A stretch of 64,000 bases of DNA from Candidatus Pacearchaeota archaeon (GTDB lineage Archaea > Nanobdellota > Nanobdellia > UBA10117 > JABICX01): assembly GCA_017608025.1 (NCBI GenBank), contig JAFCGM010000005.1, positions 984 to 64,983 on the forward strand, in the 5' to 3' direction. Position numbers and translations under genes: made by a program. Shown one piece after another: positions 17,202 through 62,466 of this stretch; within the stretch, counting starts at the first letter, position 1; every line of letters starts with the position of its first letter. Under the pieces are notes generated by a model that worked only from the letters and a program-made list of their open reading frames with translations, was not told where the DNA came from and made no database searches.

Positions 17202-17347
17202 GCGTTCGTAGCTCAGTCTGGTAGAGCGATGGTCTTGTAATGAATTCCTTTCAAAAAGGTCTTCACCCTAAGTCTGGCGGAAAACCGATGATTCTGAAAG
17301 GAAAACTGGAAAACCATAGGTCGAGGGTTCGATTCCCTCCGAGCGCT
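17202..17347 (+). tRNA. tRNA-Thr(TGT) with a 72-nt intron at 37/38 (17240-17311)
   Basis: Acceptor GCGTTCG/CGAGCGC, anticodon stem ATGGT/ACCAT, loop CT-TGT-A|A, T-loop TTCGATT; relaxed BHB. Confidence 0.88.
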
Positions 17348-24542: not shown

Positions 24543-24640
24543 GGGCGGGTAGCACAGTCTGGCAGTGCGTTTGCTTCGCAATAACTTTAACAGAAAAACG
24601 AAAAAGCAAAAGGTCCTGAGTTCAAATCTCAGCCCGTCCA
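24543..24640 (+). tRNA. tRNA-Ala(CGC) with a 24-nt intron (24581-24604)
   Basis: GGGCGGG/CCCGTCC with the G3:U70 Ala determinant; TTTGC/GCAAA stem; TTCG pairs with intron CGAA as the central helix. Confidence 0.92.
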
Positions 24641-24750
24641 CTTGAAGCTTTTCTTTAGAAAAGAAAATCTTCTGCAAAAGAAACCACTATTTGGGAATGC
24701 AAACACTTTTTTAAAGGGTTTGCCCTGGGTATCAAATCTCAGCCCGTCCA
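24622..24750 (+). repeat. tRNA-Ala tail duplication with hairpin modules
   Basis: 19-bp TCAAATCTCAGCCCGTCCA at 24622 and 24732; the copy is preceded by GCAAACACTTTTTTAAAGGGTTTGC. Confidence 0.9.
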
Positions 24751-46687: not shown

Positions 46688-48565
46688 ATGAGTATCTTAG
46701 ACAAAATTCTAGAGAAATTACCAAGAGAGACGCAAATATCCAGCACGAGCTATGAAGGCGCAAACATTATTCTCTACACAAAAAGCAGGAAATTTTTTCT
46801 AAATAGCGGAGACATAATCCGGCAGCTTGTTGATGAATTCAAAAAAAGAATTGAGCTTCGTGCAGATGCAGCAATACGAAAGTCAGAAGAGGATTCTGAA
46901 AAAATTCTCAAAAAACTATTTCCAAAAGATGCTGAAGTCACAAATATTGTATTCCTGCCTTCGCAATCCCAAGTAATAGTTGAAGCGAAAAATCCTGGAA
47001 GAGCAATTGGAAAAGATGGCGAGATATTAAAGGAAATCAAGGAAAAAACATCATGGACACCTTTTATCAAAAGAGAGTCAGTTGTTACTTCAAACATAAC
47101 AAATAACATTCGCAAGGTTCTTTATGAGGACAATGCAGAAAGACAGCGTTTCTTAAATAATGTTGGAAAGCGAATTTATGAAATAAAAAAAGCAACTTCT
47201 TCTGAAAAATGGGTCCGACTTTCAGTTCTTGGCGGAGGTCGTCAAGTAGGACGTTCATGCTTCTTGCTGCAGACACCAGAATCAAAGGTTTTGATTGACT
47301 GCGGAATAAATCCTGCAGCATCAAATTCAGGAGAATTTCCATATCTCACCGCACCAGAGTTAAATCTTCAAGACCTTGATGCTGTAATTGTTTCTCACGC
47401 TCATTTGGACCACTCAGGCTTTGTGCCTTACCTTTTCAAATACGGATACAAAGGTCCGGTTTACTGCACAGAACCAACTCGAGACATTTCATCTCTTTCG
47501 CAGCTTGACTATATTCAAGTAAGCCATGCCCAGACAAAAAAAGCCCCGTATTCCAGCACAGACATAAAAGAGGCAGTAAAGCATACAATTGTTTTGGATT
47601 ACAATGAAGTGACAGATATAACTCCTGATGTTCGAATTACGCTTTACAATGCAGGCCACATTCTTGGCTCTTCTCTTGTCCACCTTCATATTGGCGAAGG
47701 TTGGCACAACATTCTCTATACAGGAGACTTCAAGACAAAGGAAACTCAATTGCTTAATCCAGGGCATTCTGAATTTCCTCGCGTTGAAACTTTAATAACA
47801 GAAAGCACCTATGGAAAGCCGGACGACTTAATGGCTCCGCGCAAGGAATCAGAAAACGAGCTTGCAGAGTTTGTAAAGTCAACAATAAAAAGAAAAGGAA
47901 AAGTTATTATTCCAGTACTTGGAGTTGGCCGTGCGCAAGAAGTTATGATAATTCTTGAAGAAATTTTTAGGAAAAGCAAAATAAATGTTCCAATTTACAT
48001 TGACGGAATGGTTTGGGACATGACTGCAATTCACAATGCCTATCCAGAATATCTAAATAATTCTATTCGCGAGAAAATCTTTTACAAAGACAGAAACCCT
48101 TTTCTTGCAGGGAACTTCAAAAGAGTCGGCTCAGCAAAGGAAAGAAAGCAGGTTATTGATGGAGGCTCTTGCGTTATTTTGGCAACATCGGGTATGCTTG
48201 TTGGAGGTCCGTCAGTTGAATATTTGAAAAAATTAGGTTCAGACAAGAAAAACTCCTTGGTTTTTGTTTCCTATCAGGCAGAAGGCTCTTTGGGAAATAA
48301 CATTCAGAGAGGAGATACATCATTTTCAGAAGACGGCGAAACCTATGAAGTTAATCTTGACATTAACACTGTTCCTGGATTATCAGGACATTCTGATAGA
48401 GAAGAGCTGTTAACTTATGTTCGAAAAATGACTCCAAGGCCGAGAAGAATTATCGTAGTTCATGGAGACAACCAGTCATGCCTAAACCTTGCTTCAGCTT
48501 TCCACAAGGAATTTCACATAGAGACTACAGCACCGAGAAATCTGGATGTTCTTCGGTTACGTTAG
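46688..48565 (+). CDS. KH-domain beta-CASP ribonuclease aCPSF1 (termination factor FttA)
   Basis: Two KH domains, HAHLDH, AGHILGS, GRAQE, SGHSD, VHGD; next to psmB as is usual in archaea. Confidence 0.95.
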   Translation: MSILDKILEKLPRETQISSTSYEGANIILYTKSRKFFLNSGDIIRQLVDEFKKRIELRADAAIRKSEEDSEKILKKLFPKDAEVTNIVFLPSQSQVIVEAKNPGRAIGKDGEILKEIKEKTSWTPFIKRESVVTSNITNNIRKVLYEDNAERQRFLNNVGKRIYEIKKATSSEKWVRLSVLGGGRQVGRSCFLLQTPESKVLIDCGINPAASNSGEFPYLTAPELNLQDLDAVIVSHAHLDHSGFVPYLFKYGYKGPVYCTEPTRDISSLSQLDYIQVSHAQTKKAPYSSTDIKEAVKHTIVLDYNEVTDITPDVRITLYNAGHILGSSLVHLHIGEGWHNILYTGDFKTKETQLLNPGHSEFPRVETLITESTYGKPDDLMAPRKESENELAEFVKSTIKRKGKVIIPVLGVGRAQEVMIILEEIFRKSKINVPIYIDGMVWDMTAIHNAYPEYLNNSIREKIFYKDRNPFLAGNFKRVGSAKERKQVIDGGSCVILATSGMLVGGPSVEYLKKLGSDKKNSLVFVSYQAEGSLGNNIQRGDTSFSEDGETYEVNLDINTVPGLSGHSDREELLTYVRKMTPRPRRIIVVHGDNQSCLNLASAFHKEFHIETTAPRNLDVLRLR

Positions 48566-48649
48566 TTTATTATTTTCCGCCGCCGCTTTTTTGAAAAGGG
48601 GCGTGAGGCCACTGCTCCAAGAAATCTGGATGTGTTGAGGTTGAGATGA
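48527..48649 (+). repeat. aCPSF1 tail, hairpin module, then a synonymously recoded copy of the tail
   Basis: 48527-48565 and 48611-48649 both encode TAPRNLDVLRLR*; the copy is preceded by CGCCGCTTTT-TTG-AAAAGGGGCG. Confidence 0.9.
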
Positions 48650-48905
48650 AAATAGAAAAGAAATACTGGCCAGAATATTTTCAGAAAATTCTTGACAGAG
48701 AGAAAACATTTGATTTAAGATTAGTTGATTTTGATTGTAAAAAGGAGATATTTTAGTTCTCCGAGAATGGAATCCTAAAACCAAAGAATACGCTGGTCGC
48801 ACAATTGAAAAAGAAATAATCTGCATTATTAAAACAAAAGAAGTGCCTTTTTGGTCAAAAGAGGAGATTGAGAAATCTGGCTTTCAAGTAATTGGATTTA
48901 AATAG
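48646..48905 (+). pseudogene. ASCH/DUF3850-domain gene with a 1-nt frameshift
   Basis: MKIEKKYWPEYFQKIL..EKTFDLRL.DFDCK then, one base back, GDILVLREWNPKTKEYAGR...IGFK*; the shift is in the A5 run at 48739-48743. Confidence 0.8.
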
Positions 48906-48907
48906 AA

Positions 48908-49510
48908 TTAAGCATTCAAGTTGTAAATCTTCCAGACAACAGCACTGCAAGGATAAATTTTCTTCAGATTTGTTTTTAGCAGATTTGAGATTTTCTTTGG
49001 ACCTTCAATGCTTAGAATATCTGCAGAAGTTGCTTTTTTTGCATAAGCAGAAACATATTCTTTAGTTACTTTCTGAAGCTTAGAGCTTACACTATGATGA
49101 ATTTTGTTTTTTCCAAGAAGATAAATTTTGAATTTCAATTCTTTTTCATCTTTTGTTTTGACATTAAAAACACATAGTATTCTCTGCTTTTTCCTTCTGT
49201 GAAGTGACTGAATATAGCTGTCAGCAACAAAGAATTTTTTTGCTTCAGTATCAGCAGTTTCACCTTGAACTTTGTTTATTTTTATTACAATTTTGTTGAA
49301 AACATCCCTTCGATTTCCAGAAATCTGGCCAAAGCTTGTCTCAACAGTCCTTCCAATAAGGGCTTTTGGTTCGTTTGCAGGAATCTCTCCAATTTCCTTT
49401 TTATTGAACTGCTCAGAAGCATTTACGATGAACCACTTCTTTTTAGCTTTTTGAGTTCTAGAACCTAATTGCTTTTTTTTGCTAACTTTTTTCTTTTTTC
49501 CTGCTGACAT
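48908..49510 (-). CDS. rps3ae: 30S ribosomal protein eS1 (S3Ae)
   Basis: KKKWF...LIGRTVE...KKIYP; downstream of rps15 as in other archaea. Confidence 0.85.
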   Translation of the reverse strand: MSAGKKKKVSKKKQLGSRTQKAKKKWFIVNASEQFNKKEIGEIPANEPKALIGRTVETSFGQISGNRRDVFNKIVIKINKVQGETADTEAKKFFVADSYIQSLHRRKKQRILCVFNVKTKDEKELKFKIYLLGKNKIHHSVSSKLQKVTKEYVSAYAKKATSADILSIEGPKKISNLLKTNLKKIYPCSAVVWKIYNLNA

Positions 49511-57139: not shown

Positions 57140-57745
57140 ATGGCTAAAATAAAATTAATCATCTTTGACATTTGGAATACGCTTATGTACACACATGAAA
57201 ATAAATTAGATGTTATGCTTGAGCTTTTAGGTATTGATGAAGCAACATTCAGAGATGGAATAAAGCGAATGTGTCTTTCTAAAATGTCTATTGAAGATCT
57301 TTTCTCAGAATTTACAACAGATAAAAAGAAACTTAAAACTGCTGTTGATTTATGGATGAATGATAAAGTTACTATTTACAAGGATGTTATTCCTACGCTG
57401 AATGTATTATATGGGAAAATTAAGATGGCAATTCTTTCTAACTCTTCAACATACATAAGAGAATTTTTGAAGGAAAAAAGGATTTCTGCGTATTTTGATA
57501 AGATTTATTTGTCTGCAGAATACGGACTTCTTAAGCCAGATCCAAGGCTTTTTAATATAATTCTTAAAGATTTTAATTTAAAACCAGAAGAAGTAGCAAT
57601 GGTCGGCGACAAGGAAAGCAAAGACATCGCCCCAGCCAAGCAAAAGGGAATTCTCGGAATTTTGATTGACAGAAAAAACTCAAAAGAGAAAATCCTTGCT
57701 GACTACAAAATTCAGAATTTGAGAGAAATAGAAAAGATAATTTAG
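57140..57745 (+). CDS. HAD-superfamily hydrolase
   Basis: FDIWNTL, LSNS, KPDPRLF, MVGD...DI. Confidence 0.9.
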   Translation: MAKIKLIIFDIWNTLMYTHENKLDVMLELLGIDEATFRDGIKRMCLSKMSIEDLFSEFTTDKKKLKTAVDLWMNDKVTIYKDVIPTLNVLYGKIKMAILSNSSTYIREFLKEKRISAYFDKIYLSAEYGLLKPDPRLFNIILKDFNLKPEEVAMVGDKESKDIAPAKQKGILGILIDRKNSKEKILADYKIQNLREIEKII

Positions 57746-62073: not shown

Positions 62074-62466
62074 CTGCCCTTTCTTTCCCAAAGAAAGTGC
62101 AAGTTGCCCAAAGAAAAACAACAATAGTTCTTTGCAAACACCAAAGAAAATGCTTCGGTCATAATAACCTATTTATTCGAAAGAAAAACAACAATAGTTC
62201 TTTGCAAACTTATTATTTTTGATGAAACTTTTTCTAAAAGTTTCTTTTTGATGAAACTTTTTCTAAAAGTTTCTGGGGGATGCAAACACTTTTCTAAAGG
62301 GTTTGCAGGGGTTAAGAATCCTCGCCCTAGCACTTTCTCTTTTAGAAAAAGAGAACCTGCACTAAGAGAAAACTAATCTTTAAAAAAAGATGCATCAAAA
62401 ATGTTTCGCTGCCGCTTAACATACTTTTCTTTTTTGAAAAGAAAATATCATCGCCCTAGCACTGCC
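62057..62466 (+). repeat. tRNA-Leu tail present three times, with nested hairpin modules
   Basis: Tail copies at 62316-62334 (19 bp) and 62451-62466 (16 bp); internal 30-bp repeat (62110/62180) and 29-bp tandem (62216/62245). Confidence 0.9.

Follow-up and report, generated by a model that had tools for sequence, protein, structure and literature searches.

A synonymously recoded second gene end behind aCPSF1 in a Pacearchaeota genome and its relatives: a probable hybrid between lineages

The DNA analysed here (the window) is a 64-kb stretch of one contig (JAFCGM010000005.1, here C21) of a Candidatus Pacearchaeota archaeon, the genome assembly of which comprises 700 kb in 34 contigs with a G+C content of 33.5%. 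Genomes are denoted by G-numbers, with G000 for this genome, G001 for its congener and the remaining numbers for other relatives, and loci by L-numbers. The subject is the 3' end of the gene for aCPSF1 (FttA), the archaeal beta-CASP ribonuclease and termination factor, behind which the same gene end is written a second time in different codons. The gene (nt 46688-48565, + strand, from the open reading frame (ORF) listing and Pfam profiles) specifies 625 amino acids and closes with tail copy 1 and a TAG stop. Judged from its sequence, the predicted product has the set of domains that defines aCPSF1/FttA, all with Pfam scores above the cut-offs: KH (KH_TffA, 66.4 bits), metallo-beta-lactamase (Lactamase_B, 57.3), beta-CASP (Beta-Casp, 107.9) and RMMBL (66.3). 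Full-length orthologues were found in 41 of the 41 genomes searched, and each ends at the identical ...RL(R/K)* position. The orthologue of the nearest genome shares 81% amino acid identity, and among congeners the tails differ at 0-2 of 14 residues.

The end in use (copy 1, E T T A P R N L D V L R L R stop; nt 48521-48565, + strand) and the displaced gene end (copy 2, E A T A P R N L D V L R L R stop; nt 48605-48649, + strand), which is synonymously recoded and closes with TGA, were located by repeat search and translation. Copy 1 reads ACA GCA CCG AGA AAT CTG GAT GTT CTT CGG TTA CGT TAG (nt 48527-48565) and copy 2 reads ACT GCT CCA AGA AAT CTG GAT GTG TTG AGG TTG AGA TGA (nt 48611-48649). 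Both translate to TAPRNLDVLRLR*, with 8 of the 12 sense codons and the stop differing; 27 of 39 bases are identical and 12 differ, with zero amino acid change. The duplicate had been described in an earlier examination of the letters of the window (the sequence-only reading), and its residues, codon differences and coordinates agree with the sequence and translation. The similarity spans 38 nt at 76% identity (nt 48521-48558 versus 48605-48642) and starts at a GAG, 6 nt farther 5' than had been listed in that reading. The spacing between the copies is 84 nt, in frame. Within both lies a 14-nt core, AGAAATCTGGATGT (nt 48536-48549, + strand, identical to nt 48620-48633 by exact match search). 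Its presence had also been reported, and it holds up: the core has exactly two matches in the window (48536 and 48620), a number reached in none of 100 shuffles, and no further copy anywhere in the 700-kb genome.

The stop of copy 1 and the start of copy 2 are separated by 39 nt (nt 48566-48604, + strand, delimited by sequence, fold and family pattern), a non-coding insert that consists of a T-rich spacer and one hairpin module. It has no + strand ORF of 40 aa or more, and the TAG of copy 1 is the only stop between the copies. The module (nt 48575-48603, + strand, from its fold and the family pattern) has a stem of nt 48581-48590 paired with 48594-48603 and a T-run at nt 48587-48592. It belongs, as had been claimed, to a family within the genome, here counted at 30 copies with a loose pattern and with 11 distinct arm pairs. 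The three outer base pairs are maintained by compensatory changes in 28 of the 30 copies (AGC/GCT, CAG/CTG, GAG/CTC, CGC/GCG, GAA/TTC, GGA/TCC) and are adjoined by a conserved G.G or A.G mismatch. The single hairpin at the locus has a folding energy of -13.6 kcal/mol (z -1.2), and 22 of 200 shuffles fold equally well; as this is unremarkable for its composition, the structural support comes from covariation across the family and not from energy. The fold of nt 48560-48655 is likewise no better than that of shuffles, and a bulge-helix-bulge intron at the locus is thus unsupported. A scan for bacterial-type promoters and terminators returned nothing at the hairpin, an Rfam scan of the window returned tRNAs only, and viral contigs gave no match to the hairpin pattern and none to the back-translated tail. 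In a search of a genome collection, the hairpin pattern matched just one other assembly, a woesearchaeote, at contig ends. Tandem arrays of the module with a period of 37 nt occur at G000:C21:1-100 (just before the window), C8:1-115 and C28:80809-80950. The end of contig C15 and the start of C22 of G001 overlap by about 45 nt within such an array, and repeats of this kind break assemblies. At the aCPSF1 locus of G001, family hairpins directly follow the aCPSF1 stop and there is no copy 2; the order is aCPSF1, three modules, a 78-aa ORF and the convergent gene.

Copy 2 runs into the next gene, since the ATG at nt 48646-48648 overlaps its TGA at nt 48647-48649 (ATGA), and its 3' half contains the ribosome-binding region and the start codon of that gene. 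The overlap had been noted previously, with the gene given as an ASCH gene. The overlap is confirmed; the gene matches DUF3850, which we take to be grouped with ASCH, and is frameshifted. Its first piece (nt 48646-48756, + strand) meets a premature TAG after 36 codons and covers Pfam profile positions 2-28 with 20.0 bits, below the cut-off of 22.9, while the second (nt 48741-48905, + strand, in another frame) covers positions 32-64 with 25.3 bits, above the cut-off. The coding extents are nt 48646-48753 and 48741-48902, with the frameshift in an A-run at about nt 48739-48743, and the profile is therefore covered by two pieces in different frames instead of one open frame. The split could reflect either decay after an insertion separated the gene from aCPSF1, in which case the stop and the T-run hairpin now upstream would explain the single frameshift, or a sequencing error. 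DUF3850 was not found in G001; it is present in 14 of 41 relatives, never directly behind aCPSF1. Beyond it lies a convergent 200-aa gene (nt 48908-49510, - strand, from the ORF listing), a putative ribosomal protein S3Ae gene. It directly adjoins aCPSF1 in relatives, at a distance of 23 nt in G003 and 36 nt in G004.

From the Ala codon to the stop, the copies in G000 show 11 base differences and no amino acid change; with half of the differences falling at random in a copy free of constraint, this outcome would have a probability of about 6 × 10⁻⁴. Four of the 12 codons are identical; when G000 is compared with G001, the fraction of identical codons at conserved residues is 0.40-0.70 along the gene. 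The claim of the sequence-only reading that both versions evolved under selection at the protein level is supported by these figures and by the same pattern in five more genomes. Tandem duplication by slippage was considered and rejected: it needs copies that were identical at birth and later changed at random, and the observed differences are synonymous only. Slippage and an echo of the same sequence had already been dismissed in that reading, correctly so, as the 12 differences among 39 bases are all synonymous or stop-to-stop.

The duplicate is genuine, and it recurs. Of 30 loci taken from relatives, 29 include the aCPSF1 end, and inspection by eye revealed a second tail in five of these. 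When the genomes of the order were searched with a back-translated pattern of both tails, 6 of 39 gave a match, against none with the reversed-pattern control. The six genomes (G000, G005, G012, G017, G019 and G038) represent six different genera, other members of which lack the second tail; the loci are window 48527/48611, L049 and L051-L054. In the same order of genomes, the copies are spaced by 84, 83, 162, 261, 123 and 72 nt. The inserts differ in sequence and length, measure 24-215 nt in the five genomes besides G000, and in no case contain an ORF. Over the 72 codons from the Ala codon to the stop in the six pairs, there are 59 base differences, which leave 45 codons changed synonymously and one non-synonymously (Ala to Ile in G038, at the 5' edge). 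Every non-synonymous difference sits at the 5' edge of copy 2, adjoining the insert. All six second copies keep the stop in register, with the type of stop changed in three, and the chance of all-synonymous changes, again with half of them random in a free copy, ranges from 3 × 10⁻⁴ to 1.5 × 10⁻² per genome. The displaced tail is 11-15 codons long in all six cases. The longest identical block is 14 nt in G000 and G019, 12 in G038, 11 in G012, 9 in G017 and 6 in G005, and conserved codons alone can yield runs of this size. The right edge of every insert is the right hairpin arm or lies a few bases past it, and the same module abuts copy 2 at aCPSF1 of G017 and at a GTPase gene of G007. Copy 2 directly precedes a gene start only in G000, and not in G005, G012 or G038.

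No aCPSF1 pair with identical repeats was found among the 39 genomes. Across the class, the tail pattern matched 13 of 401 genomes, but the 7 outside the order are unlike aCPSF1 tails by their matched sequence, and the reversed control gave 6. A metagenome scan yielded 16 loci. In 11 of them the gene end was correctly located and the downstream sequence was long enough, and a second tail is absent from all 11; at 2 others the gene was assigned wrongly, and a further 2 had no ORF. The nearest locus is 79% identical, and its sequence stops 15 nt after the aCPSF1 stop. Collecting orthologues with their codon versions and next genes, a check proposed in the sequence-only reading, brought to light the second tails in 6 of 39 genomes, but neither a donor nor a close relative free of the insertion.

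Comparable duplications occur at other genes. A scan of G000 for short-range direct repeats gave 81 rows, and 42 events were chosen by eye from the repeat listings as unique repeats around hairpin-like inserts, leaving out tandem arrays and repeats without hairpins. Their repeats measure 14-70 nt and are mostly identical, and their inserts measure 20-240 nt and draw on seven or more hairpin families. When ORFs of at least 70 aa were compared by protein sequence, 12 of 1442 had their last 12 residues re-encoded within 350 nt (at least 10 of 12 identical), and none did in a control region 3 kb off. Compared by DNA sequence, 34 ORFs of at least 100 aa showed a tail copy that shares 24 or more of 36 bases (control, 2). 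A further scan found tail copies at 15 of the 815 ORFs of that length in G000 (spurious ones included), 4 of 287 on contig C1 of G012 (235 kb) and 3 of 101 on contig C7 of G005 (86 kb), with none in the controls.

Tails that are recoded yet preserve all residues were found in G000 at aCPSF1 and at an Obg-like GTPase only. The latter gene (YGR210-like, with a TGS domain; G000:C25:52505-53704, - strand) has a second tail 255 nt downstream with 12 of 12 residues and 30 of 39 bases identical; farther 5', the pair has in addition one Glu/Asp change. Its tail is doubled in 4 of 30 loci (G000, G001, G007 and G017), with different inserts; the repeat is near-identical over about 85 nt in G001 and recoded with at most one residue changed in the other three. 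In G012, which belongs to another family of the order, three of the four tail copies on C1 are recoded, namely those of aCPSF1, of an MBL-fold protein (C1:70576-71352, L115; spacing 118, 10 of 10 residues and 24 of 33 bases identical) and of aIF2-gamma (C1:131996-133213, L118; spacing 146, 10 of 10 residues and 26 of 33 bases identical). The aIF2-gamma pair shows 15 identical bases followed by seven synonymous differences. In recoded pairs the similarity stops exactly at the stop codon, whereas in identical pairs it continues into the 3' flank, and distal copies in serial arrays at less conserved genes decay. One identical pair lies within the window, at a 201-aa ORF (nt 57140-57745), the tail of which is repeated exactly (36 of 36 bases scored, continuing past the stop) at a spacing of 93 nt with a 37-nt hairpin module between; an older, degenerate module follows the second copy. 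The gene of an aCPSF2-type beta-CASP paralogue (C26:121237-122490, - strand) carries a 32-nt identical tail repeat at a spacing of 130 nt (G000:C26:121103-121264).

Gene starts are duplicated more rarely than ends. Four matches were obtained, one of which is a spurious ORF on a tRNA repeat; at the other three (C25:54431, + strand; C26:154984, + strand; C28:128971, - strand), the first 10-11 residues are re-encoded 85-89 nt upstream in near-identical DNA. For 5 of the 11 tRNA genes in the window, an exact repeat of the 3' part, beginning at the T-loop, lies 97-259 nt downstream, directly behind hairpin modules (nt 17331-17361/17440-17470, 20573-20589/20670-20686, 24622-24640/24732-24750, 25113-25134/25228-25249 and 62057-62075/62316-62334). 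Some of these repeats run a few bases past the tRNA end. Immediately 5' of the exact repeat, the start of the T-loop is altered from GAGT|TCAAATC to GGGTA|TCAAATC (twice) and from GGTTC|GAATCC to GGTTAA|GAATCC (window 24724-24731, window 62307-62315 and G000:C28:177310-177318), which could mark an exchange boundary or an inactivation. Two tRNA genes reported by Rfam (nt 17202-17347, 146 nt, and nt 24543-24640, 98 nt) were not reported by ARAGORN and probably contain introns.

The duplicated aCPSF1 end is probably a hybrid between lineages. Our preferred account, to which we assign a probability of roughly 55%, is that DNA of two lineages was joined here through the import of a short cassette at the end of the gene. 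As the differences between the copies are synonymous only and both stops are kept, each copy appears to have been a working gene end in its own lineage. An unused copy should gather non-synonymous changes and lose its stop, which the recoded pairs do not, and the two copies would have come together recently. The cassette would comprise 84 nt (recoded end, TAG stop, T-rich spacer and hairpin module) placed within the last 13-15 codons of aCPSF1/FttA, and it would have pushed the earlier end, copy 2, out of the gene, still fused by the ATGA to DUF3850. Each end would have served a separate lineage until recently, the divergence being about that of two species of one genus or more. The event itself would be a recombination with DNA of a related lineage, in which the exchange likely took place at the 14-nt core and the hairpin formed the other edge of the imported piece; copy 2 would now be a functionless, recent fossil. 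The identical block of 11-14 nt in four of the six aCPSF1 pairs, like the 15 identical bases of the aIF2-gamma pair, would fit one exchange between a resident end and a diverged copy. Two routes can be envisaged. A break near the gene end might have been mended with a diverged donor as template, the copied tract running past the stop into the hairpin of the donor, where synthesis would halt and end-joining follow. Alternatively, a recombinase might exchange a tiny element, consisting of the gene-end copy and the hairpin, as happens at attachment sites.

Of the two directions left open in the sequence-only reading (an incoming allele that displaced the native tail, or a tail that arrived together with the gene behind it), we lean towards the first, with copy 1 and the hairpin as the incoming piece. 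G038 is distinguished from its congener G025 solely by a 72-nt insertion, and the convergent gene comes next in both, after copy 2 in G038 and after the single tail in G025. The stop and T-run hairpin now ahead of DUF3850 in G000, which would explain its one frameshift, point the same way. In G017, copy 2 is nearer to the congener tail than copy 1 (6 versus 10 differences over 11 codons, counted manually). In G019, it is copy 1 and the first 22 nt of its 3' flank that match the congener G037, with copy 2 onward not doing so (4 versus 8 differences, counted manually). In G000, G005 and G038, the two copies do not differ in their closeness to congeners. A donor with the same peptide is plausible, given that congener tails differ at 0-2 of 14 residues.

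Several results weigh against the import of a cassette. Neither a donor with the codons of copy 1 and its flank nor an insertion-free close relative was found, the nearest genome being at 81% amino acid identity. The claim that one copy came from another lineage stands as the most economical inference. The D-V-L residues common to both copies occur in none of the 29 orthologues compared, and a donor lineage, which would have to share that peptide, was not observed. The main weakness is that most other repeats in G000 are identical and flank unique, poorly conserved sequence, which points to target duplication on the spot; such identical repeats would mean either that the process also operates within the population or that a local step duplicates the target. 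Along aCPSF1, the profile of divergence between G000 and G001 reveals no tract that is clearly imported. Simple illegitimate joining would not predict fossils of such narrow size (11-15 codons, six of six). A search of G000 for a reverse transcriptase (RVT_1) or a TnpB-type domain found neither; the genome has one full tyrosine recombinase (G000:C8:80725-81207) and one fragment. The contigs of one public sequencing run (0.07 of sampled words) mostly belong to other organisms and reach only nt 47990-48302, with nothing over nt 48500-48700. The interpretation put forward in the sequence-only reading is, as a whole, partly supported; the genome- and order-wide scale, the identical repeats, the tRNA ends and the frameshift had been overlooked.

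The same observations can be read in the reverse direction, with copy 1 and the hairpin native and copy 2 plus DUF3850 arriving as cargo between the hairpin and the convergent gene. The congener G001, with its hairpins right after the aCPSF1 stop and no copy 2, would fit this, as would the scattered occurrence of DUF3850, not found in G001 and never directly behind aCPSF1 in the relatives that have it, the convergent gene that follows aCPSF1 at once in G003 and G004, and the match of copy 1 and its 22-nt flank to G037 in G019. The ATGA overlap, too, shows a joint evolution of copy 2 and DUF3850 in some lineage. Against this, the native neighbour in G038 follows copy 2 with no extra gene, and copy 2 of G017 is the one closer to the congener tail. 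A start 11-15 codons before the donor stop in six independent cases would also be left unaccounted for, and we regard this direction as unlikely. Insertion on the spot, duplicating a target of 40-45 nt that diverged later, with copy 2 retained by some form of selection, for instance through frequent loss and regain of the insert as the repeats recombine or through a role for DUF3850, is a less probable explanation again. It is allowed some weight because of the identical repeats at unique sequence: G000 has dozens of hairpin insertions with identical repeats of 14-70 nt, at gene ends, three starts and tRNA ends, the geometry of which is that seen at aCPSF1, and the ribosome-binding region and start of DUF3850 lie within copy 2. 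A free copy should, however, acquire amino acid changes and lose its stop, and there is 1 non-synonymous change among 46 changed codons, with six of six stops kept, while the distal array copies at less conserved genes do decay. A role for the following gene could apply in G000 only, as no gene start lies behind copy 2 in G005, G012 or G038, and the 39 genomes offer no aCPSF1 pair in the identical state from which divergence would have begun.

An assembly artefact, in which two co-occurring strains or species were joined in series in a metagenome-assembled genome, is very improbable. It is true that this is a metagenomic assembly of 34 contigs, that contigs break at hairpin arrays and that no reads lie over the site. 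But no shared sequence links the right edge of the hairpin to copy 2, the sole identity being the 14 nt of the core, which is shorter than the words used by assemblers. The architecture moreover recurs, with differing inserts, at several genes and in assemblies from six genera, and copy 2 continues into the downstream gene through the 4-nt overlap. The least credible explanation is expression of copy 2, whether ribosomes read through the TAG or the copy serves as an alternative C-terminus. The TAG is the sole stop between the copies in G000, where the spacing of 84 nt is in frame, and five of the six aCPSF1 spacings are multiples of 3 (chance about 0.02, post hoc; the exception is G005, with 83). 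Yet over 11 recoded pairs only 7 are in frame (chance about 0.04, post hoc), TAG ends 68 of 366 long ORFs of G000 and is thus an ordinary stop, the inserts of G019 and G017 contain further in-frame stops, and the product would be a protein with its tail repeated, for which no use is evident.

Beyond the single locus, a wider proposal can be put forward tentatively, and at less than even odds. Hairpin elements of about 40-250 nt without an ORF may enter the last 10-15 codons or so of genes, or the T-loops of tRNA genes, in Woesearchaeota, and carry recoded ends with them so that the insertion is silent. Equally tentative is the suggestion that they move between species by way of the conserved target, as homing or integrative elements reduced to their attachment site, and so leave a record of frequent exchange among DPANN archaea. 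If the hybrid origin is true, these tiny genomes would keep a readable record of interspecies recombination at their most conserved genes, in which each recoded fossil end is one event that can be dated by its decay, and DNA exchange among uncultured DPANN archaea would become measurable. It would also imply either a class of very small hairpin elements or a hairpin-halted repair pathway that replaces gene ends harmlessly. In practice, gene callers, tRNA finders and tests for strain chimerism can all be misled by duplicates of this kind, and hairpin arrays break assemblies.

No description of hairpin-associated, recoded gene-end duplicates in archaea was found in the literature searched, which excludes subscription journals and so gives weak evidence of novelty. 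Several known systems share part of the features. Like miniature inverted-repeat transposable elements (MITEs), repetitive extragenic palindromic (REP)-like elements and the repetitive hairpin elements of mitochondria, the modules are multi-copy, structured, non-coding hairpins at gene borders, and their conserved structure (28 of 30 copies) is that of such a family. Known MITEs produce short target duplications of fixed length. The flanking repeats here are unlike these, as they vary from 14 to 70 nt and are recoded at conserved genes, and those at aCPSF1, which are 73-77% identical, appear to have been diverged from the start. The repeats at tRNA genes invite comparison with archaeal integrative elements of the pNOB8 and SSV types, which use tRNA genes as attachment sites. 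As with those elements, the 3' part of the tRNA from the T-loop is repeated beyond the insert (5 of 11 tRNA genes in the window); the inserts here differ from theirs in being hairpin modules of 80-240 nt without a gene. A tRNA fragment that adjoins a recombinase-bearing insertion has been described, in the part of the account consulted (PMC3293823).

Two further systems come closer in the arrangement of the gene end. In the mitochondria of fungi (Allomyces, Glomus), a mobile endonuclease ORF is accompanied by an inserted C-terminal portion at atp6, atp9, cox2 and nad3 (PMC3630166, in excerpt). The C-terminal copies share 64-81% identity at the DNA level and 94-100% at the protein level, and are interpreted as the result of recent interspecies transfer (PMC3630166, in excerpt, citing Paquin et al. 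1994). As in these hybrids, the aCPSF1 locus has one C-terminal part in phase and another downstream, with the DNA diverged and the protein kept, the inserted and native parts corresponding to copies 1 and 2 if the cassette was imported. The mitochondrial inserts carry a LAGLIDADG or GIY-YIG endonuclease ORF, unlike the insert described here, which has no ORF, concerns 11-15 codons and resides in a DPANN host. The second system is the element e14 in the icd gene of Escherichia coli, where the insert supplies the end in use and the earlier C-terminal fragment (icdC) is displaced (PMC13626634, in excerpt). The two ends differ mainly synonymously and are swapped by excision (PMC13626634, in excerpt, citing Hill et al. 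1989). The aCPSF1 locus resembles e14, and phage 21 at the same gene, in that the gene end is duplicated: the copy in use adjoins the insert, and the earlier end has been displaced. On the other hand, e14 is a 15-kb element with its own integrase, whereas the insert at aCPSF1 amounts to 39 non-coding nucleotides that contain a single hairpin and lack an ORF, and many genes and genomes are affected, with differing inserts. Since neither an integrase nor an endonuclease ORF lies between the copies, the locus is not a member of the e14 kind or of the mitochondrial hybrids; by analogy, it may work like them.

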